DNA of 20,000 nucleotides from Chiloscyllium plagiosum (taxonomy: Eukaryota): the NCBI RefSeq assembly GCF_004010195.1, contig NC_057755.1:589453-609452 (forward strand), written 5' to 3'. A program made the position numbers and the translations under genes. The notes beneath the pieces are model-generated. The model searched no databases. It had not been told where the DNA came from and saw only the letters and a list, made by a program, of their open reading frames with translations. This document shows, piece after piece, positions 1 to 19,960 of the stretch (its first letter is position 1; every line of letters begins with the position of its first letter).

Positions 1-690
1 AACAACTCTGTTCGTTCTAACTCTGAGCTTCCAACCTAGCTCCCTGAAAGCTTGTCTAACATCCTCAGCACTCCTCCTACCTATGTCGTTGGTCGCAATA
101 TGGACCACGACTTCGGGCTGCTCCCCCTCCCCTTCCAGGACCCGGAAAACACTATCAGAGACATCACGTACCCTTGCACCTGGGAGGCAACATACCAAAC
201 GTGAGTCTCTCTCGTTCCCACAAAACCGCCTATCTGTGTCACGAACTATCGGGTCCCCAATTACTACTGCTCTGCTGTTCTTCACCCTTCCCTTCTGAGT
301 AACGGGGACAGGCTCCGTGCCAGAGACCTGAGCCCCGTTACTTACCCCTGGTAAGTCATCCCCCCCACAAGTATCCAAAACGGTATACTTGTTCTTGAGT
401 GGAATGGCCGCAGGGGGTCCCTGCACTGGCTGCTTCCTCCCAGTCCCCCTCACTGTCACCCATCTCTCTGCCATCTTTGGAGTTACTACTTCCCTATAAC
501 TCTGATCTATGACCCCCTCTGCCTCCTGAATGATCCGAAGTTCATCCAACTCCAGCTCCAGTTCCCTAACACGGTCTTGGAGGAGCTGGAGGTGGGTGCA
601 CTTCCTGCAAGTGTAATCGGCAGGGACGTCGATGGCATCCCTCACCTCATACATGTTGCAGGAGGAACATTGCACTGCCTTCACTGCCAT
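1..690 (-). CDS. CR1 ORF1p (CxxC/CxxC Zn finger, coiled coil, SGNH-esterase-like domain), partial, 230 codons open to the window edge
   Basis: My translation: MAVKAVQCSSCNMYEV...YTCRKCTHLQLLQDRVRELELELDELRII...WVTVRG...IPLKNKYTVL...AVVIGDPIVRDTDRRFCG...VCCLPGARVRDV...EVVVHIATNDIG. It is absent from the ORF track because there is no stop in the window. Confidence 0.8.
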   Translation of the reverse strand, partial: MAVKAVQCSSCNMYEVRDAIDVPADYTCRKCTHLQLLQDRVRELELELDELRIIQEAEGVIDQSYREVVTPKMAERWVTVRGTGRKQPVQGPPAAIPLKNKYTVLDTCGGDDLPGVSNGAQVSGTEPVPVTQKGRVKNSRAVVIGDPIVRDTDRRFCGNERDSRLVCCLPGARVRDVSDSVFRVLEGEGEQPEVVVHIATNDIGRRSAEDVRQAFRELGWKLRVRTNRVV

Positions 691-1063
691 CCCTCTAAAG
701 CTAACCTTTATTTAAAAAAAAAAATCTGGGTCTAAAGAATACAACAAGCAAAATTCAGCACTTACCTCCTTTCCACAACAGATGTTATTATTAGGTTAGA
801 GGACAAGGGCGGGTGGGAGGCACTACCCGTGTAGTGCCTCGGGTTCCTCTCCTTCGCGCTTTTAAAGGGGGAAAAAACCTACCCAGGTAAGCTTACACTA
901 ACTGCTTCCTGGTCTCGGCTGTCCCTCTGGGTCGTCGTCACTTCCCCCTGGTGCTCCCGCTCTTTCTGTGAAGAGAGAGTGAAAGAGAAAAAAAAACCCA
1001 CCCCTGCCTGCTACCGGTAAGTACTTTTAAAACCAAACGGTCTTACCTTCGCTGCTGCTCGCA
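1..1063 (-). mobile_element. CR1-type LINE 5' end (5'UTR about 1063-691 plus ORF1), continuing off the left edge
   Basis: The minus-strand ORF from the ATG at 690 encodes a CR1 ORF1. The sequence upstream of it (691-1063) is taken as the 5'UTR. The 5' boundary is approximate. Confidence 0.85.
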
Positions 1064-1870: not shown

Positions 1871-2658
1871 CAATGGTGATCACCTGTAATGTGACATGAA
1901 CCCAAGGTCCCGGTTGAGGCCCTCCCTATGGGTCCCTATGGCTATCAGCCTCTGCTCAGCCACTTTCCTCTGCTGCCTATCCCGAAGTTCACCTTGGAGG
2001 ATGGTCACCGAAGGTCCGAGGCTGAATGTCCTGGACCACTGAAGTGTTCCCCAACTGGGAGGGAACCCTCCTGTCTGTTGATTGTTGTGCGGTGCCCGTT
2101 CATCCGTTGTCGGAGCCTTTACTCACTTTCCCCAATGTACCATGCCTCTGGGCATCCCTGCCTGCAACGTATAAGATAGACAATGTTGGCTGAGTCACAT
2201 GAGTACCTGCCATGTACACGGTGGGAGGTGTTCCCACGCGTAATAGTGGTATCTATGTCCACAATCTGACACGTTTTGCAGCGTCCACCGTGACAGGGTT
2301 GTATGGAGTTGTCCTGAGAGCCGGGCAGTTTGCTATGAACAATGATCTGTTTGAGGTTTGGCGGTTGTTTAAAGGCAAGTAGTGCAGGTGTGGGGAAGGT
2401 CTTGGTGAGGTGCTCATCTCCATTGATAATGTGTTCCAGGTCACGAAGAACATGGCGTAATTTTTCAGCCCCTGGGAAGGACTGAAAAACGAAGGGCACC
2501 CTATCAATTTCAGCCCGTGTCTGTCTCCTGAGGAGGTCATTACGGTTCCTTGCTGTGGCACATCGGAACTCTGTGGAATTCCCATCATTGCAGTTTCCAC
2601 AAGAATTGCCCGGGAAACTGAACTTTCCTCTGGATAGTTCATCTCCTCCTGGAACCTT

Positions 2659-3386
2659 GATGAGAAATATTGATGAACAGAGAGATCTGGGAGTTCAGGT
2701 CCATTGTAACCTGAAAATTGCTGCACAACCGTATAGAGTGGTCAAGATCGCATATGGCATGCTTGCCTTCATCGGAAGGGATATTTAATACAAGAGATGG
2801 CAGCTCATGTTAAAATTTTGCATGATGTTGGTTCGGCCGTATTTAGAATACTGTGTGCAGATATGGTCGCCACATTACCAAAAGGGTATGGATGTCTTGG
2901 AGAGGATGCAGAGAAGGTTTTTGAGGATGTTACTTGCTCTGGAATGTATGAAGAGAGGTTGAGTAGGTTAGGTTTGTTTTCATTAGTAAAAAAAGAGATT
3001 GAGTGGGGACCTTATTGAGATCTACAAAATCGTGTCGGGCATAGACAGGTTAGATATAGATACGCTTTTTCCCAGGGTGAAGGATTCTGTAATGAGAGGT
3101 CACGATTTCAAGGCGAAAGGTGAAAAGTTAAAGGGGTTACACGCGGCAAGTTCTTTACACAGATGGTGGTGGGTGCCTGAACGCATTGCCAGCAGAGGTA
3201 GTAGAGGCAGGCACGGTAGATTCATTTAAGGTACGCCTGGACAGATGCATGAGAAGGTGGAGAGCAGAGGGAAACAGATGCTTAGGAGTTGGGCGACAGG
3301 TTTACACAGTAGATTTGGATTGGCTCAGGCTTGGAGTGCCGAAGGACCTGTTCTTAGGCTGTAAATTCTCCTCTCTCTTTGTTCTT
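2659..3386 (+). mobile_element. 5'-truncated CR1 LINE (ORF2 C-terminus and 3'UTR)
   Basis: EQRDLGVQVH, AYGMLAFIGR, LVRPYLEYCVQIWSPHY, LERMQRRF, GDLIEIYKI and RGHDFK motifs spread across frames. Ends in a ctttgttctt tail. The flanks are contiguous in the paralogous intron (14647-14670). Confidence 0.92.
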
Positions 3387-5205: not shown

Positions 5206-6125
5206 CCTATGGTTCTTCACAACAGTGGAAAGTCGGAGGACTGTTAAATTGAATTCACAAAGTGGACTGAACGCCTGTTCCTGTGCCATAACATTCATAT
5301 AGTTCCATGAGATAGGAGGACAGCGGACGAGTGCTGAACTGAAATCCAGAAGGCTGTGGCTTCCTTCCACTTACTCAATGTAGAAGAGATTAAAGCTTCC
5401 TAATAATTACAGGAAGGAACGAAAAACATAGAGGATTATAGCTTCCTTATTCTTTACTGGAAGGAAAAAAATGAACTAACTTTAGAGCATAATACCTTAT
5501 GAATCATACCATTTGGTTAATACAGTTCACTTTGTTTAATTATTCCCGTTAGAGAGTCAGAGAGTCCGTAATTTTATTATATTGTAGTTTATTGTACACA
5601 TTCTAGAGCAGTGGCAATCTATGATTCCACAAGTGCACTGTATGTTTGATTTTCATTTTTCAATTTATTCATAAAATGTTGACGGGATCATTCCAAAAGT
5701 ATGTGAGTTAGGCAATGAAGAGAAAACATTTCAAAATCACATTATACTCTTTGAGTTTTGCACTCTTTGCTGAGTCAAAATTAGAACACTTGCTAAATAT
5801 GACTGGGGATTGTTGACATTGCAAGACATGATATCGGCGTCTGAATGTGTTACCATGCCCTGCTTATCATGACACAGAGGTCTTAGATAGTGCCTTGTGC
5901 CATTGATGATGAAACTAAATTTTCGCAGCTCTATTATCATTCTGCATCAAACAATGACAACGTCTCCAGCGTACGAACGCATGATTCGTATTATAATGAA
6001 CAGAAGTACACCCGGTATGTTAAGTGAGGTTTTCCGAAGGTTCCATAGTAGATTCATATCAACACTTTGTATTTCAATTCCCTTTTAGGTAGTAACACCT
6101 GTCCTTTGCAGTAATAGTGTTGTTC

Positions 6126-6640: not shown

Positions 6641-6809
6641 CAATTATTGAAACACAATTAGTGATTTGAGACAGGCATGGGGCTGTCATTTTTAGATTGG
6701 ACCTCTGACCGGTCCCAACTGATGCATTTAGGTGAGAAGATTTCTGTTGCTGTCTGGGGCAACGTTTGATTTGTAATTTCTGATTTTTGTCTACCTCTGT
6801 CTCTTCCAT

Positions 6810-7637
6810 TTAATGTACTGGTGATTTTCGGTTTTTGTACAGAGAATGTGTGCCGTTTCAAACTGCACCATGCGCTGCCTGATGATTATGGCAACGGCAG
6901 ATCTGCTGTTTATTATTACCAACATTGTACGCAGGAGACTGAATATTTATTACTTTCCAATGTGTTTCCTGGACCTCACCCCTGTGTGCAGTCCCTCTTT
7001 TTGCCGTGGTTCATATAGTCACAGACTGTTCCACCTGGTTCATTGTCCTTTTCTCCAATGATCATTTTGTCGCCATTTGTTGCCTGAAACAGTAGAGAAG
7101 TTATTGGACACAGAAAGCCTTGGCTGTGGCTCTTCCTATATCTCGAATTCTGATCTGTATAAAAAGCATTCGCTTCCATTTTAGGTTTGAGCCAAAGAGG
7201 ATACTAGACAACGTTCCATGGTATTCCCGATTATTTTACTGATCCCAGATGGCTGGGATTTAATTGGCTTGATACCATTTTAACCCCTTTCATCCCATTC
7301 ATGTTAATTCCGTTGATGTACACTCTGATGATCGGGTACATTTTAGTGGCCAGTCGAATCTGCAAGAGCCTGAGGGGTCAGAGGAAGGGAGAAAATCACA
7401 AAGACGCAGAGATGGAGAGCCGGAGGCAGTCATTGATTTCACTCTTCACGATATCCATCAGCTTCATACTTCTGTTGGTAGTGTACGGTGCAAACATCTT
7501 ACACTGTATCATTAAAAAGCACATTATTGAAGGAACTGGTGTTTAATCCAGGTTAAGGGGGCCAGAGAAATGCTGAAGGACTTCAGCTGCAGCACGAACA
7601 CTTGATTACATGCAGTGATTCTGCCCAAGTTCAAAGC
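6810..7637 (+). pseudogene. Pseudogenised paralog of the GPR139-like GPCR (exon 2 remnant)
   Basis: Colinear with 17620-18440 (ATADLLF, FLDLTPVCS, TDCSTWF, LDNVPW, TDPRWLGF, HKDAEMESRRQS, KDFSCSTNT). The acceptor AG is replaced by AT (6808-6809). Frameshifts near 6827, 6995, 7230 and 7560, in-frame TAG at 7093-7095, TAA at 7544-7546, and DRF changed to DHF. Confidence 0.92.
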
Positions 7638-8435
7638 ATTTCTTCTTCCAGAAGTTGCACAGGGAGAGCTTTGTGGTCATCAGCCCGAAAGAAGACGTTG
7701 GCTTAATAACGTCATCTTAGTCTGACATCCTTCAGATCGGCAAATTATTTTATATCAGATAGCATGACACAGACACAGCAGTCTCCTGTTCCATCCTGAC
7801 CTCGATTGCATAGGTCTGAGAAGGCATGGAAAAGGAGAGACTGGACCAACCTAGAGTCCTCCGAAAAGAAAACAAAACTCGAGAAGCGAAGTTCTGTGGG
7901 ACTTTATTGGGCAGGACCTGCTGGATGTACATGACAGTCTCTTTCTAGCAGGTAAACTGCACGAATCCATGCTGAAAGGTATCATCACCGTTACCTAAAA
8001 GTGGTAAGACGAAAGAGAGGAAATGAGAATTTGGTCACGAATTTCAATGCTGAATGCAGACCACAAAATCTTGTCTATGGTCATCGCCAACTGGGGCAGG
8101 TCTGCTCTGGGATCGGTGATTCACCCCGCTGTGCAGGGCAGAATAATCTCTGACAGACACGTATTCCTCAAAGATGTAATTGCCTTTGTGTCGGACAGAC
8201 GGGTGGATAGCTATCGTATCAACCTGGAACAGGACGAAGCCTTATTACATGCCTACATATGGAATGTGCTGTCCACACTGGGCTTGAGGAAGGAACTTGC
8301 AATTGCACTAGACTGCTCTGCGCAAACATCGTTAGTGTAGTCTCCATTAATGGGTGGAAATAGACAAGCTTCCCAGTCAGCTCTGCAATCAGTTAGGGCT
8401 GCCCAGTGTTCGCTTGCTTATTTTATTGTTGCACC
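7636..8435 (+). mobile_element. Tx1/L1-clade LINE ORF2 (reverse transcriptase) internal fragment
   Basis: FFFQKLHRE..., LWDFIGQDLLDV, MLKGIITVT*...REEMRIWSRISMLNADHKILSMVIAN...LGSVIHP...GRIISD, INLEQDEA and a degenerate V*GCP motif. These match Tx1-type NWRPISLLNVDYKILSKVIAN, SLDQEKAFD and GVRQGCP motifs. Confidence 0.85.
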
Positions 8436-9059: not shown

Positions 9060-9589
9060 ATGGAGGCATTCATGTTCTAAATTGAAGGAAACTTTCAGAA
9101 TTCTGAAGAGTAAAGGGATTTGGGTATCATAGCTCAGAATGCTCTTAAGGTTACCATACAGGTTTTGTTGTCAGTTAGAAAGGCAAATGCAATGTTAGCA
9201 CTCATTTCAAGAGAGCAAGAATATAAATGCAGGAGTGAATTGCAGAAACTGTACTCGTCTCTGGTCAGATTGCAATCGGAATGTTGTGAGCAGTTGTGGG
9301 CTCCATATCTTAAACCTTTTGTGCTAACATTGTAACAGATCCAGAGGACATTTATAGGAAACATCCCGGGGATCAGGGGTTTGTGATAAGAGGAGCAGCT
9401 GAGGGGTTTGCGTCTGTAGTTGATAAATTTCAAAAGATGAGAGGTGCATCTGATCAAAATGCACGGAATGCTGTGAGGCCTGTAGACAGTGGGTATGGCA
9501 AATCTGTTTACATTTCAATGCAGGATTGGGATGCAAGGGTACTGTCTCAGAATGAATCATGACTCTTTAGAACAGAGGTGAGAACGATT
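9060..9589 (+). mobile_element. CR1 3' fragment, left part (interrupted by a nested CR1)
   Basis: RDLGII, VRKANAMLALISR, KLYSSLVRLQSECCEQLWAPYL motifs. Confidence 0.85.
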
Positions 9590-14354: not shown

Positions 14355-14421
14355 ATGCTTCAAACAGTTTATCAGGCACGGAAAATATGTTACGTGATCC
14401 TTCCAATTGTAGCAGTTCCTG
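14355..14421 (+). CDS. Exon 1 (coding part) of GPR139-like orphan class A GPCR
   Basis: ATG at 14355 reads MLQTVYQARKICYVILPIVAVP plus one G, followed by a consensus donor G|GTGAGT at 14422. The phase-1 G joins TT at 17620-17621 to give V-N-F-L-V, completing TM1 in frame with exon 2. Confidence 0.85.
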
Positions 14422-15280
14422 GTGAGTGTTGTGCACCGTTGACTTTGTGTAAATCTGCCTGAGAATACTCTGCGGTTTCACTTTCCCGTTGACAATGATA
14501 CATGGACATGTTGTGACCACCGTCACATAGGGGCAGACAATAGTTGATTTCGATTCAGACCGCAGGCTCCCTGCGGAATCCCCAGCATCGCAGGCTCAGA
14601 AGGAATTGTTTGACAAAACAATTTCCCGCTGGATAAGTAATCACTTCCTGGAACCTTCTGTAAATCTCCATTTTAATCGGAGGCTTCAGCGAATTACAAC
14701 ATAATTAAGTAGAATAGTCACTTTGGATTGTGTGACGTAAACTGTGGAAATCGTATGCAGTAAGTGCTAAAGCATATAGGGTGAATTTCGTTCTTGTTTT
14801 GGAGTAATTAACCGGTGTGTTTCTCTGTGTCTCTGAAGATAATCGTTCTGTTAATAGAGAGAGTTTAGATAGTGGCATGTGCCCTCAATGATGAAACAGA
14901 TTTTTATCAGTTCAGTTATCATTCTCCATGTTGTCCAATTCGTCAACTCATGTTGTTGTGATATGTTCGCCAGAACCAGACCTGTTAAATGAAGGATGCT
15001 CATTGCAGATCAATTTTGGATGAGTAATAACTCTTTGCATTCCAATTCCCTTCTGGAAATGAACGCCTGTCCTAAATTGGTAATGGTATTGTTTTATAAC
15101 TCTCTTAAGGCTATTTTCCATTTTTGTGAATCTGTCCCTCTGAGCTCCCAAACACATTGATCTCATTTGGATGCTTGTTTTCCAAGGAATCTTTTGAAAA
15201 TCACCCTTCCTACCTAATTGCAGCAATGCGTGCTTGACACTCTAGACATTATTTTCATTTAAATGTGGACTTGATATTTT

Positions 15281-15470
15281 GGGATCGGTTAGCGCAGTTA
15301 GCTGAATAGCTACTTTACAATGCAGCATGATGCGAACAGCGTGCGTCCATTTCTTGCACTGGTGTTGAAGTTACCTTTGAATGATTCTCCTTTTCAATCT
15401 CTGTCATTGGCTGATGCACTAGATATTCGGATTACACCAACACCAGTCATCTCTCTCTTAACAGAGGATA
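15281..15470 (+). mobile_element. Decayed tRNA-derived SINE in the GPCR intron
   Basis: Box-A-like GGTTAGCGCAGTTAG at the start and a degenerate box B (cgtccatttct) about 55 nt later. It resembles a shark SINE as I recall it. Confidence 0.55.
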
Positions 15471-15659
15471 ATGCAAGGGTCTGCCCTGCTTTCCAAATGC
15501 ATGTAGTACTTACTCTATTTTAATGTATTGCATTCTTTCCCCCTGCGTTCCTAAATAGAGCGACGTTTATACTCTGCTGAGATATTTCACAAGTTTAGAG
15601 ATGTTGACTTGAATGCACCCCACTACTCCTACGTTTTCTTTCGAAATTTCTGAACAGCA

Positions 15660-16590
15660 GTTTGGCGCAAGTGTTGGTTCCACGACCTTTTCCTCATTTA
15701 TAAAATTGATTTGAATGTGAATATAGCAGCAATGGTTCGCAAATTTGCAAATAATACCAGAATAACTGGCATAGTGAAAAGTGCAAAATGTTACTTCCGA
15801 GCGCAACAGCATCTTGATCAGTTGGGCATTGGTCCGAGAAGGTGCAGATGGAGCTTAACTTTGATAAACGTAAGATGCTGTATTTTGGTCAGGGAAAGCA
15901 GGGCAGGACTTATAGGTTTAATGGTCGGGCCCTGGGATGTTTTGCCGAACAGATACGGATGAGTTTCGGGGAGACACAATGGTGAGGAAAGTGTTTAGCA
16001 AGCTTACCTTCATGCGCAGTGGATGCGTATAGGAGTTGGGATGTCATGGTGCAGCTGTCCAGGACGTTAGTGAGGTGACGTATGGAATGCTGTATTCAAT
16101 ACTGATCTCCCTGCGAAAGGAATGTTGCTATCTTGCAAACGTTCAAAAAAGAATGACAAGGGCTTTACTAGGATTGAAGAGTTTGAACAAGAGTGAGAGG
16201 CTGAATAGGCTGGAGCTATTTTGTCTGGTGCATTGGAGGCTGAGACGTGACCTTATAGAGCTTTATAAATTCATGAAGCGCACGGTTAGGGGGAATAGCC
16301 AATGTTTATTTTCTTTCTCTATTATAGGGGAGCCCAAACCTCGAGCACATTGGCTTAAGTTGATAGGCTTGCGATTTAAAAGCAACCTGAGGGGCAATGT
16401 TTCCATTCAAAGTGTGATGTGTTTATGGAAATACAGGTGCAAATACATCATTGAAAATACATCTATATGGGTAGATGAATAAGATATCGATCAGATACTG
16501 GCCGATGAGACTTGCTCAATGTTGGAAAACCTGTCGGTATGAATGAGTTGCACAGAAGTGTCTGTTTTTGTGATGTATGACCACAATGGC
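15660..16590 (+). mobile_element. Decayed CR1 ORF2 3' half in the GPCR intron
   Basis: RKFANNTRI (compare KFADDTKI), LANVQKRMTRALLGL, ERLNRLELFCL..RLRRDLIELYKFM, followed by a 3'UTR. Confidence 0.85.
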
Positions 16591-17127
16591 TACGGCATTA
16601 GGCGCAGTCGAATTTGTATTTTCAACTGCAGTCTTTGATGTAGACTCTGAACATAGACTGCACATTTCCAGAACGCATGGATAAAGTGCGATGTTTGGTG
16701 TTGCTGAGGAAAAAAATATCTCATGACAAGAATATGGACGGCATATGGTTAGGCGGCAGGAAACAGAATGTCAGCTAAAACCGAGTCTTGGGGTGGAACG
16801 CCAGTTTCATGATCCTCAGGTTGATTCATAATCTGATGATCATGTGATGGAGGAAGAGATAATGCGTCCAATCTCCAACATTCCATCTCTCTCCCTCAAA
16901 CTCTGAGTTTGTTTTCTGGGGTGTTAGACAGGTGCGGTTTGTGATCTTAAGGGCACCCAGGGGAACGGACAGCTGTTGGGAACGTGCAACCAAAATGTCA
17001 AATAGCAGTGCAGGTTCGAAAGGCTGAATGGACCTCACGTTCTCGAAATTCTTCAAACTAGGACAGTCAGAGCTAAACTGAAAAAGCTGATTAAGATAAA
17101 GACTTATGGCCACAATGAATCATGTCA

Positions 17128-17228
17128 AAGAAAAACTAAAACTGCTGATGAAAGTTGGCTGCTCTGTTTGCATGTGCGAGAAGAAAGCCTTGTTAAGATT
17201 TTGAATCCAGCGATCCTTCTTCAGGAAA
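17128..17228 (-). repeat. Degenerate Penelope-derived hammerhead-type terminus in the GPCR intron
   Basis: Minus strand reads CTGAAGAAGGATCGCTGGATTCAAAATCTTAAC. The CUGANGA box is kept (17224-17218) and GAAA is decayed to AAAA. Confidence 0.5.
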
Positions 17229-17619
17229 AGATGTCCTGACTAGTTATCCTGAATGCTCACCCAAGGACTTATTAATTTTTTTGTGTTCTCCTTTAACTGC
17301 CCTCCAAAGCAGTGCATTTCACTGTTCTCCAGTGAAAGCCTTAACCTCAAGCTACCCTCCAAAGCTTAGGCCAGTCACCGCAAACGTATGCGCCCTTGTC
17401 ATTTGCTAATTCACTACATTGCCCCTGAACTCCCCAAATAAACTTAGAAGTGAACATTTTTGAAATCAGTCAGGCTCAGATCTGCTATTTTCAGATTTGA
17501 CCACAGACAATTCCCAACTAATGTATGTGGGTGCTAAGACCATCCATTGCTTTCTGGATAGACGTGGAGAATGTTTTATCAATAATCGCCGATTTGCATT
17601 TTACCCCTGTCTCTTTCAG

Positions 17620-18476
17620 TTAACTTCCTGGTGATGTTGGTTCTCGCACGTGGAAAGTGTGGCCTCTCAAACTGCACAAAGCGATGCCTAGTGGCCATGG
17701 CAATGGCAGATTTACTGTTCATTCTCGTGAACGTCATACTGTGGCAACTCAAGAACATTTATTTCCCAAGGAGTTTCCTGGACCTCACCCCTGTGTGCAG
17801 TTCTATCTTTGTTCTGATTCATGCCACCACAGACTGTTCTGTCTGGTTCACTGTCCTTTTCTCCTTTGATCGTTTTGTTGTCATTTGCTGTCAGAAACTG
17901 AAGAGAAAATATTGGACAGACAAAACCTTGTCTGTGACTCTAGCTACAATTGGCATTCTGCTCTGTTCAAAAAACATTCCCTTCTATTTGTTGTTTCAAC
18001 CTGGGTGGATACTTGACAATGTTCCATGGGGCTGCCGAGTAAAGTCAAGTTTTTTTACTGATCCAAGGTGGCTGGGATTTAAGTGGTTTGACAACGTTTT
18101 AACACCTTTCATTCCACTGGTGTTAATTCTGTTAATGAACACTCTGACGGTCAGGCACATCGTCGTGGTTAGTCGAGTCCGGAAGGCACTCAAGGGTCCA
18201 AGTACGGGAGAGAGTCACAAAGATGCAGAGATGGAAAGCCGGAGGAAGTCAATGATTACCCTCTTCACCATATCCACCAGCTTCATACTTCTGTGGATAG
18301 TGTACGTAACAAGTTTCTTATATAACTGCATTAATGGAACAACTTTAACTGTTTTTGCACCAATCGGATACCTCATCAAGGATTTCAGCTGCAGCACAAA
18401 CACATTATTTTATGCAGTGACTCTGTCCAAGTTCAGAGCGAAGTTCAGGAACGCCGTGCACCAACTGATCTCATAA
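17620..18476 (+). CDS. Exon 2 of GPR139-like orphan class A GPCR (rest of TM1 through TM7 and helix 8); spliced product about 307 aa
   Basis: Polypyrimidine tract and acceptor (ttacccctgtctctttcAG, AG at 17618-17619). The ORF shows LARGKCGLS (ICL1), AMAMADLL (TM2), DCSVWFTVLFSFDRFVVIC (TM3, DRF), KNIPFY (TM4), LTPFIPLVLILLMNTLTVRHI (TM5), DAEMESRRKS (ICL3), SFILLW (TM6), SCSTNTLFYAVT (TM7) and SKFR (helix 8). These match the expanded chondrichthyan GPR139-like group as I recall it. It is probably not the true GPR139 orthologue. Confidence 0.9.
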
Positions 18477-18694
18477 ATTCTTCACTTAATGATTCAGAAA
18501 AACAACTGAGAGAGCTCCAAAAGCAGCCACAGTGTTCCCTGTGCAGGAATTGTATATGTACAGCCAGGACTCCATCAGCACAACTACATGGATCTGAGTA
18601 TAACACTCAGTGGTTAGTGGGGAAGGGGTATGTAAAAGGATGGGTCACCTTTCACTATGCTCAGGAACAAGCTGCTGCCTTACAGACTGTCACA

Positions 18695-18900
18695 AACGGT
18701 GACACACAGACAATGAGCAACAAGCAGTAGGCCATTCAGCCTTCGATTCTGATCCTCTTGCCATTCCAGAAGATCGCAACACATCTAATTCTAACGTCAA
18801 ACCCGCTTTCACATCTGCCCCTGAGGACGATCCCACTCCTCCCTCTCCAAAGGTTAACAATAATCTATCCAGTTCTAAATTGACATTATTGAAGGACATA
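18695..18900 (-). mobile_element. Old CR1 3'UTR fragment
   Basis: gcagtaggccattcagccttcga is the reverse complement of the CR1 terminal ...ggctgaatggcctact motif. Confidence 0.6.
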
Positions 18901-19157: not shown

Positions 19158-19163
19158 AATAAA
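19158..19163 (+). promoter_or_regulatory. Candidate polyadenylation signal of the GPCR gene
   Basis: First AATAAA that I saw downstream of the stop, about 680 nt away. No transcript support. Confidence 0.3.
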
Positions 19164-19304
19164 CACTTTATTATAACAAGAGAAAGGCTCCTTGTGCTGG
19201 TCATTCCTCCAACAAAATTTGAAATTATTTCCTGCTGTTCTGTTCATTATTGAAAGAGTTTCTTGAGCCCAGCTCCCATCCACTCTCAACACTGGGAATA
19301 TTAT

Positions 19305-19650
19305 TTCCCCTCCACTCTGTCTCTTTCTGTCTACCATTGTCTCACGTTTCTCCTTCTCTCTCTGTCTCTCCCTCTATTTCACTCTCTCTATCTATCTCTC
19401 TCACTATCGATCAGTTTCTCGCAATCAGTCTCTTCCTCTGTCACTCTGACCGTCTTTCTATCTCTCTTCATCTTTCACTGACTTCGCTCTCTTTGTATCT
19501 CTGTCTCAGTTTCTCTCGGTTTCTCTCTGTCTCTCTCACTCTCTCTGTCTCTCTCACTCTTTGTCTCTGTCTAATTCTTTCTCCGTCTCTCTCTCTATCC
19601 TCTCTCCTTTTGTCTCTCTCTCTCTCCCTTTGTCTCTTTCTCTCATTGAC
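19305..19650. repeat. CT-rich degenerate microsatellite / polypyrimidine tract
   Basis: Imperfect (CT)n and (CTGT)n runs. This explains the SLSL and RERE ORFs. Confidence 0.9.
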
Positions 19651-19870
19651 TGAGTCAGACACTTGACTCAGTTTACCACATGTTCACATACATTGGCTCA
19701 AATCCCCTACTTATCTCTTCAGTCACTGATTTCACTGCAGGAAGTGATTTTCGAAAACGCAACACGCACGGACACAACCAGCAATACGTTGATAAAATAT
19801 TAATTAGAGTTCTGTAAAATTCTGTTTCCTTTCATCTGCGGCACTCTGATTTTATTCCTCTCTCTCTCTG

Positions 19871-19892
19871 TATCTATCTGTCTATCTATCTG

Positions 19893-19960
<68 letters not shown>
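19871..19960. repeat. (TCTA)n / GATA tetranucleotide microsatellite
   Basis: 17 perfect TCTA units at 19893-19960, preceded by TCTG-interrupted units. Confidence 0.97.

Follow-up and report, generated by a model that had tools for sequence, protein, structure and literature searches.

An intact two-exon receptor gene

The window, that is, the whole 20,000-nt stretch of Chiloscyllium plagiosum DNA that was analyzed, carries a predicted two-exon receptor gene (14355-18476) and, 10 kb upstream of it, a broken paralog. The features are as follows:

5876..6124, + strand, intron remnant of the pseudogene, homologous to 14858-15093
6688..7637, + strand, pseudogenized tandem paralog (intron end and exon 2), 72% nucleotide identity to the gene
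14355..14421, + strand, coding exon 1, encoding the Met, an extracellular N-terminus of very few residues, and the first half of TM1, with a phase-1 donor, GTGAGT
14422..17619, + strand, GT..AG intron of 3,198 nt, splitting the codon just before N1.50 and holding retroelement-like remnants
15732..15788, + strand, intronic remnant that matches (63% over 19 aa, E 5e-8) the N-terminus taken as first exon in public model P0002
17620..18476, + strand, coding exon 2 with the 7tm_1 match, running from the second half of TM1 through helix 8 to the stop
18477..18509, + strand, tail remnant, 10 codons in frame behind the stop, of the family's usual C-terminal tail
19158..19163, + strand, candidate poly(A) signal, the sole AATAAA/ATTAAA 3' of the stop within the window

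Exon 1 (67 nt) opens with an ATG and runs into its donor, and a pyrimidine tract and CAG lie directly 5' of exon 2 (857 nt). Conceptual splicing of 14355-14421 to 17620-18476 yields 924 nt in phase 1 with 307 open codons, and stops occur in all three neighboring join offsets. Exon 2 matches Pfam 7tm_1 with 61.5 bits against a cut-off of 30.5, and the class A hallmarks are present (7tm_1, N1.50, D2.50, R3.50, C3.25 with an ECL2 Cys, P5.50, W6.48, N7.49, and Y7.53). Judged by its sequence, the receptor is a class A (rhodopsin-like) GPCR. The sequence-only reading had proposed an intact gene whose two exons join in phase into a 307-aa 7TM protein, and the canonical splice sites, the open join, and the domain match bear this out. 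The noncanonical motifs that it listed, i.e., DRF, the missing P6.50 (a Val stands there), and NTLFY, are indeed found in exon 2, together with C3.25 and the ECL2 Cys, D3.37, D5.42, and W6.48.

Exon 2 depends on exon 1, as its own frame meets a stop 11 codons 5' of the acceptor. Of 73 family N-termini, 48 map to the exon 1 spot, which outscores every other bin (31.2 bits); three noise bins collected more N-terminus matches, but weaker ones (20.2 bits at most). Moreover, the 24 residues from Met to N1.50 are the modal length among Met-initiated close models (35/71). Altogether, exon 1 is supported by homology and the splice is predicted. That this exon is hard to see, as had been suggested, is illustrated by the public models of the nearest relatives, which either lack exon 1 or carry a wrong one. 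The remnant at 15732-15788 presumably resembles a LINE reverse transcriptase. A single-exon gene was ruled out, since P0004-6 use an upstream stretch that lies out of frame in this gene. At the other end of the protein, the early C-terminal end recurs in the five nearest relatives, and the tail truncation is therefore common to the subclade.

The name opsin, carried by P0001 and P0002, was rejected: position 7.43 is an Asp and not a Lys, the Lys sits at 7.42 instead and occurs in only 2 of 78 close members, and no opsin occurs among the 60 listed PDB relatives of the family profile. The predicted AlphaFold model is poor (pLDDT 57, pTM 0.42) and was left out of the pocket geometry; with this low-confidence model, every Foldseek match in the ranks listed was a generic class A one, GPR139 being absent from the listed top 50.

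Among the 15 splice joints listed (68 more are unlisted), no read joins 14421 to 17620. A run of unstated tissue (13.0 million records, ~2% of the run) shows no coverage in the bins at either exon. Another run, RNA only by guess, has a contig depth of 1 to 3.4 over 17225-18895 and 0 over exon 1. At 90% likeness, the depth over 17225-18895 may come from paralogs or DNA. None of these read observations speaks for or against expression.

A dead neighbor and the integrity of this copy

The neighboring pseudogene claimed earlier is confirmed as a broken paralog at 6688-7637. Its acceptor position reads CAT (6807-6809), indels lie near 6829, 6993, 7231 (11 nt), and 7514-7551, and stops lie near 7095, 7546, and 7605; no exon 1 of this copy was found within the window. 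The remnant at 5876-6124 aligns with the intron of the intact gene with a score of 127 against a shuffled maximum of 48, and this homology of intron sequence indicates that the copy arose by DNA duplication and not by retroposition. The dN/dS between gene and pseudogene is 0.62, a value that combines one branch under selection with a neutral one and is uninformative.

We are highly confident that this gene is intact and belongs to a large orphan class A family restricted to chondrichthyans. That this copy is instead a young pseudogene whose frame is still open is a very slim prospect: it would account for four changes at near-invariant columns (three of them absent from P0002 and P0004-6), a long branch (0.47), the shortened tail, and the dead neighbor, but both splice sites are canonical, the frame is open, 76 of 80 near-invariant family columns are retained, and the truncated tail is common to the five relatives. 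Moreover, a 94%-identical relative, itself with an open exon-2 frame, differs by zero changes from TM5 through ICL3 into TM6.

A very large chondrichthyan family

At E<=1e-10, 1,499 of 2,520 candidates count as matches, which sets a lower bound on family size. The 120 matches listed all come from sharks or rays, 75 of them from the horn shark, Heterodontus francisci, and a chimaera member nests inside the family clade, so that the family spans sharks, rays, and a chimaera. Only 2 of the 75 listed horn-shark members have a neighbor at 95% or more, and one 74.5-Mb contig is named for 38 of the 75 (hand count). In one sequencing run, the summed depth over exon 2 was 2,427 versus ~50 to 100 in unique flanks, a value that is not a copy number and hints at many close copies. 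The birth-and-death family proposed from the window thus stands, with far more than a few paralogs (1,499 matches), a tandem copy, and a pseudogene; many paralogs per genome, tandem copies, and pseudogenes are features of a chemoreceptor-type repertoire.

The family is apparently undescribed, chondrichthyan, and very large, its horn-shark members being hidden under the automatic label "probable GPR139." No description of it was found in the literature searched (most subscription journals lay outside the scope). The 24 supplementary files of PMC8455134 hold nothing on it beyond one orthogroup label, GPR142, and it was not found in the supplements of PMC7677710, PMC10529500, and PMC10115646 or in the text of PMC10620051.

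A sister lineage of an amphibian and sturgeon orphan

GPR139 and GPR142 are class A orphans activated by L-Trp and L-Phe, and the locus had been read as an orphan GPR139-like receptor. In a tree in which GPR139 itself is not included, support is 97/92 for the family and 100/99 for the family plus an amphibian/sturgeon gene. In this tree, the family is the sister lineage of an apparently single-copy orphan of amphibians and sturgeon, and it would not be a set of GPR139 duplicates. The amphibian orphan forms one 90% cluster per listed species. Automatically labeled "probable GPR139" (e.g., XP_069092602.1), the orphan has coelacanth and teleost relatives and is possibly related to GPR210A/B of PMC6504862. 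Like the shark family, it has a short N-terminus, C3.25, and a D-x-E in ICL3 and lacks P7.50; unlike it, it has a nearly invariant pocket and keeps F3.33, P6.50, K6.51, N7.39, and DRY. From Met to N1.50, the amphibian orthologues count 25 to 27 residues in 20 of 20, and P7.50 is missing in them as well as in human GPR139. A short N-terminus and a missing P7.50 are therefore ancestral and no sign of chemosensation, and the earlier use of the short N-terminus as a sensory mark has to be abandoned; NTLFY is no such mark either.

Among solved structures, GPR139 comes closest to the family profile (60.6 bits versus 40.8 for the next), and amphibian, coelacanth, teleost, and amphioxus proteins plus three further matches all score above it (96 to 171 bits); exon 2 alone finds no match among PDB chains at E<=0.001. 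Mutagenesis has mapped the Trp/Phe site of GPR139 to F109, H187, W241, and N271 (PMC5430874), and in our alignment reading only the W is kept, the other three being H90, D180, and Y273. Given the distant profile score and the replacement of three of four ligand residues, the gene was rejected as a GPR139 orthologue, and this replacement also leaves the aromatic-amino-acid lead weak. The gene resembles GPR139/GPR142 in its two exons, its lack of proline at 7.50, and its retained W6.48, whereas C3.25, absent from human GPR139, is present in the family gene, which lacks P6.50. GPR139 is 70 to 96% identical across vertebrates, in contrast to the multicopy, fast-evolving shark family. Two exons are described for GPR139 in PMC7318219, matching the two coding exons of this gene. 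The intron of GPR139 presumably lies at the same position as the one found here.

By similarity only, and not by a tree, the nearest characterized relatives lie in the GPR139/142-MIP/SPR/FMRFamide receptor branch. The wider branch takes in invertebrate MIP, sex-peptide, and FMRFamide-type receptors, according to the accessible part of PMC12208981, which would suit a repertoire tuned to diversified signals from the animal itself or from conspecifics (peptides, pheromones, and cues from gametes or the reproductive tract) rather than to general environmental chemicals, as would the testis enrichment of some catshark V2Rs reported in the available portion of PMC11979771. We hold this to be highly improbable, as the very short N-terminus and the short ECL3 of the subclade would offer little surface for long peptides.

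Diversification is concentrated in the pocket

We compared 26 positions presumed to form the pocket (with approximate numbering in TM2 and TM4) with 161 other TM positions in 48 horn-shark paralogs and 20 amphibian orthologues, using proteins only; the amphibian sister gene served as the orthologue control, in place of orthologues of individual shark paralogs. Among the horn-shark paralogs, pairwise difference was 0.454 in the pocket versus 0.175 at the other TM positions, with 11.85 versus 4.09 parsimony changes per site (p<1e-4), whereas among the amphibian orthologues the pocket was the more constant part (0.048 versus 0.200 pairwise difference; 0.46 versus 1.76 changes). The intracellular loops of the paralogs differ by 0.08 to 0.12 and the extracellular loops by 0.28 to 0.47. 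Between the gene and its nearest relative, the excess of extracellular changes is not significant (11 versus 5, p=0.11). The pocket is thus variable among paralogs and conserved among orthologues, with a constant intracellular face, a pattern typical of chemoreceptor-type repertoires. As the measure uses proteins only, it does not separate positive selection from loss of constraint at the pocket.

Loss of constraint is the core of one alternative, in which the ancestral ligand was lost, the pocket drifts, the copies spread by genomic drift or for ligand-independent signaling dosage, and the paralogs are functionally alike. The ancestral residues F3.33, P6.50, K6.51, and N7.39 are gone in most members, and repeat-rich tandem arrays favor duplication. 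We nevertheless consider this improbable: the pocket has changed about twice as much as those 40 TM sites outside it that tolerate the most change in amphibians (11.85 versus 5.5 changes, p=0.0004), C3.25, W6.48, and an acidic 3.37 are conserved, and the family persists across sharks, rays, and a chimaera.

Position 3.37 is an Asp or Glu in most members (73 of 78 close ones, 16 of 18 divergent ones), and D5.42 is found in 62 of 78 close members and only 4 of 18 divergent ones. In teleost TAARs, Asp5.42 binds amines (available text of PMC4695389). The acidic residues at 3.37 and 5.42 might, tentatively, anchor an amine or another cationic group in this family, with specificity perhaps set by TM2, TM3, ECL2, and TM7.

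What the repertoire may sense

We propose a model in which one ancestral gene, of which amphibians and sturgeon would retain an apparently single copy with a conserved pocket, gave rise by tandem duplication and loss to the large chondrichthyan family. The paralogs would differ in which small water-borne or surface chemicals they bind, all would feed one shared G-protein pathway, and the repertoire would sit in sensory cells of the nose, mouth, gill, skin, or gut. We give a little less than an even chance to this reading from protein comparison, in which the family would detect outside chemicals in such cells. The chemosensory idea put forward earlier is in this way partly retained, being backed by the pocket-focused diversification and no longer by the N-terminus argument.

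The same pocket pattern fits immune or irritant receptors. Mammalian MRGPRs and formyl-peptide receptors, which are tandem, pocket-diverse expansions, survey microbial, parasite, or cationic peptides. A repertoire for immune or irritant surveillance of such peptides in leukocytes, mast-like cells, or nociceptors would accommodate the variable pocket and the constant signaling loops equally well, and the family comes from a peptide-receptor-like branch. Cartilaginous fishes are reported to be without MAS1 and related receptors (PMC8455134), which would leave this role open. The family is not named in the 4,750-character supplement of a nurse-shark spleen single-cell paper, which is uninformative. 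In the catshark, expression beyond the nose is reported for OR genes and for some V2R genes (PMC11979771), so family type does not fix the tissue; the top-50 brain-and-olfactory-epithelium list of that paper contains no GPCR. We rate immune or irritant surveillance as unlikely, while granting it a real share of the probability.

The sensory reading has a bolder form, possible and distinctly doubtful, in which sharks, rays, and chimaeras would possess a seventh vertebrate chemoreceptor family that arose independently from a GPR139-related orphan, with ~100 or more genes per genome, outnumbering OR, TAAR, V1R, and V2R together and expressed in microvillous olfactory or in skin, gill, or gut chemosensory cells. 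According to the available text of PMC10869828, cartilaginous fishes have 20 to 62 olfactory receptor genes each, the smallest olfactory repertoire among the vertebrate groups listed (mean, 43.8 genes), a range exceeded by the at least 75 horn-shark members of the family. A paucity of GPCRs has been reported for these fishes (accessible part of PMC8455134), and whether their odor space is a restricted one has been posed as an open question (PMC10116579). If true, a seventh family would put an end to the picture of cartilaginous fishes smelling with ~40 receptors. Whether the missing chemoreceptors or a large unrecognized set of immune or irritant sensors, either outcome matters, and through the conserved sister gene of amphibians, which Xenopus has, the ancestral ligand could be sought in a tractable system.

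Comparison with known systems

Like the OR, TAAR, V1R/ORA, V2R, T1R, and T2R systems, the shark family is large, evolves by tandem birth and death, includes pseudogenes, and has a diversified pocket, and it shares D5.42 with nonclassical TAARs. It differs from OR, TAAR, V1R, V2R, T1R, and T2R in its peptide-receptor-like ancestry, its TM1 intron, and its lack of D3.32, and it lies outside the six chemoreceptor families counted in the available text of PMC10869828. The MRGPR and formyl-peptide receptors do not occur in the list of 60 solved relatives found with the profile and are an analogy only. Lophotrochozoan class A expansions have heterogeneous pockets and were read as chemoreceptors in PMC11886862, the available text of which mentions neither GPR139 nor sharks. 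The atlas neighbors of the family include FMRFamide-receptor-like clusters carrying the Srw family. Like these lophotrochozoan expansions and the nematode Srw-type receptors, the shark family is lineage specific, and its expansion is an independent one, within jawed vertebrates.

Gene model and degenerate neighbor

This is a genuine and probably intact gene. An intact two-exon receptor with a hidden first exon, as the sequence-only reading had proposed, was borne out at sequence level, at which the splice model is real: the exons join in phase into 307 stop-free codons, three alternative offsets fail, and exon 2 matches the 7tm_1 domain (Pfam, 61.5 bits).

Features of the gene and its surroundings
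2119-2694, minus strand: open frame, no Pfam match
6688-7637, same strand as the gene: paralogous pseudogene, 72% nucleotide identity
14355-14421, plus strand: exon 1, followed by a GTGAGT donor
17620-18476, plus strand: exon 2, with a pyrimidine tract and CAG directly 5'
18477-18509, behind the stop: still legible vestige of the C-terminal tail that is usual in the family
19300-19960: CT-rich and (CTAT)n simple repeats

Since the exon 2 frame is closed directly 5' of the acceptor, TM1 needs exon 1. The distance from Met to N1.50 is 24 residues, a length also seen in 35 of the 71 close models that start with Met. Of 73 family N-termini, 48 match the predicted exon 1 spot; no bin scored higher, although weak matches were more numerous in noise bins. 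IQ-TREE places the gene on a long branch in a six-member hemiscylliid subclade, and it combines a short ECL3 with an early stop that leaves the old tail readable behind it; it retains 76/80 near-invariant family columns. Compared with its nearest relative P0001, the gene shows 16 differences, 11 of them extracellular (p=0.11), and the extracellular excess is significant against the related models P0002 and P0004-6 (p=0.04 to 0.001). That the gene is a young pseudogene seems to us very improbable.

The nearest public models have wrongly placed starts: P0001 opens in TM2, the N-terminus of P0002 matches a retroelement-like remnant also present in the gene's intron (15732-15788), and those of P0004-6 run into the intron end (17554-17604). 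The true exon 1 is probably missing from many of the family's public models, because only 44 of the 120 models among the family matches listed contain the strict TM1 motif. All five relatives share the gene's early end point.

The pseudogenized neighboring copy is also confirmed, with CAT instead of an acceptor, three stops, and a number of indels. It is a DNA duplicate, since a stretch of its intron corresponds to the gene's intron; its exon 1 was not found in the window. The 2119-2694 frame, which resembles a Penelope-type element whose end is GIY-YIG-like, may have displaced this exon, since a fragment with homology in the gene's intron (2571-2658, matching 14571-14657) borders it. The remainder of the window presumably consists of retroelement remnants and simple repeats, with frames that resemble LINE ORF1 or reverse-transcriptase remnants at 1-711 (minus strand), 2737-3018, 8008-8340, 9314-9562, and 16033-16482; none of six retroelement-like frames tested had a Pfam match. 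Several of these LINE-like frames overlap very high summed contig depth.

A chondrichthyan family distinct from GPR139

Taken singly, the gene is ordinary; its family is not. The suggested repertoire of many paralogs was recovered, as 1,499 of 2,520 candidates matched exon 2 at E<=1e-10. Species were assigned for the best 120 of these (the other 1,379 lie outside the assignment): 120/120 are shark or ray, 116 are named probable or putative GPR139, and the nearest is a Hemiscyllium ocellatum protein (94% over 259 aa), which makes a hemiscylliid shark the most likely source of the window. Heterodontus francisci, a horn shark, accounts for 75 of the 120 and thus has at least 75 members, with a mean pairwise identity of 0.76; only two have a neighbor at 95% or more, and 38 were assigned by hand count to one 74.5-Mb contig. 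A family profile search of 1.84 billion representatives gave 131 matches at E<=1e-30, and 18 of 19 high-scoring representatives looked up were chondrichthyan, including Callorhinchus milii, the other being unnamed.

Identity with GPR139 itself did not hold. The next profile scores belong to a salamander protein (170.7 bits), followed by coelacanth at 169.6, a teleost at 153.9, amphioxus at 105-111, and three unnamed proteins at 96-98. Human GPR139, at 60.6 bits, falls below each of these, yet it leads among solved relatives, with 40.8 for the runner-up. The salamander query, a word-limited search of 1,675 candidates, returned 20 amphibian clusters, one sturgeon, and four shark or skate proteins, and no amniotes or teleosts; each amphibian species appears once among the matches listed. 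A midpoint-rooted IQ-TREE tree of 72 rows, which does not contain GPR139 or GPR142, unites the 48 family rows (the window gene, 39 rows carrying a chondrichthyan name, and 8 unnamed ones) in a single clade (97/92), inside which a chimaera protein nests; the sister group of this clade is the gene of amphibians and sturgeon (100/99). Activation of GPR139 depends on four residues (PMC5430874); by mapping read from alignments, the amphibian orthologues keep F3.33, W6.48, and N7.39, and the window gene only W6.48.

The non-canonical motifs and short N-terminus described from the sequence are present, but part of them is not peculiar to the gene: P7.50 is absent from amphibians and human GPR139, and the short N-terminus is common to amphibians, coelacanth, and teleost, so that both traits are ancestral. 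DRF characterizes the family (77/78 close, 12/18 divergent members). P6.50 was lost inside the family, because it is kept in 20/20 amphibians and in 4/18 divergent members, of which three lie on the earliest branches. Lys7.42 (residue 276, TM7), found in only 2/78 close members, is shared with P0001 and P0002 and adjoins Asp7.43; the retinal Lys of opsins is at 7.43, and we rejected the "opsin" label of these two relatives, which Lys7.42 may explain.

A variable pocket over conserved intracellular loops

We compared 26 positions that we take, following the literature, to line the class A pocket with 161 other TM positions, dropping four TM1 pocket positions since exon 1 is missing from many models; numbering followed motif anchors and is approximate in TM2 and TM4. 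The horn-shark set comprised 48 of 75 proteins, 27 having lengths outside 295-345 aa.

Pocket variability in horn-shark paralogs (n=48) and amphibian orthologues (n=20)
Pairwise difference, paralogs: pocket 0.454, other TM 0.175
Pairwise difference, orthologues: pocket 0.048, other TM 0.200
Tree-counted changes, paralogs: pocket 11.85, other TM 4.09
Tree-counted changes, orthologues: pocket 0.46, other TM 1.76

The pattern is thus reversed in amphibians. The paralog pocket also exceeds other extracellular-half positions (0.250; p=0.0002) and, in tree-counted changes, the 40 sites outside the pocket that tolerate most change in amphibians (5.5; p=0.0004). The most variable TM sites (3.29, 7.39, 3.32, and 7.35) are each invariant in amphibians, and at 14 pocket-side positions, chosen after seeing the profile, 48/48 paralogs differ and 17/20 amphibians are identical. 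Loop differences are 0.08-0.12 on the intracellular and 0.28-0.47 on the extracellular side. As read from sequence, this is a pattern of many inputs onto one output, compatible with positive selection or relaxation; a relaxed drift of the whole family appears unlikely to us.

By its sequence logic, the family works like a chemoreceptor repertoire. We tentatively favor a model in which the paralogs would each recognize a distinct set of external small molecules, with the C3.25-ECL2 disulfide capping the extracellular binding pocket, and would signal via a shared G protein. Immune or irritant surveillance by the same repertoire is a less probable reading, and reception of self or pheromonal signals a highly doubtful one. 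Acidic 3.37 (73/78 close, 16/18 divergent members) and D5.42 (62/78 close but 4/18 divergent) might conceivably form a cationic anchor, by analogy with Asp5.42 of the TAAR amine site (PMC4695389). The amphibian sister receptor (P0230, P0269, P0272, and P0281-P0297), a conserved unnamed orphan with Asn2.50 and Ser1.50 in 20/20 sequences, has an invariant, strongly basic pocket (R2.61, K6.51, K6.55, R6.59, and R7.35) and may bind an anionic ligand.

Comparison with known receptor systems

We found no description of the family in the literature searched, which included the supplements of PMC7677710, PMC10529500, and PMC10115646 and the text of PMC10620051; subscription journals and a catshark supplement could hold one. 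Six chemoreceptor families have been counted, with 20-62 olfactory genes in cartilaginous fishes (PMC10869828), a GPCR paucity was reported (PMC8455134), and a small catshark repertoire was described (PMC11979771 and PMC10116579), the text of both papers being free of "139". GPR139 is covered in PMC12208981 and PMC7318219, and GPR210A/B were named beside GPR139/142 in bony fishes (PMC6504862), where the portion available does not contain the word "shark". The window gene and its family are not GPR139 and stand outside every named sensory family; comparable receptor expansions are those of invertebrates (PMC11886862).
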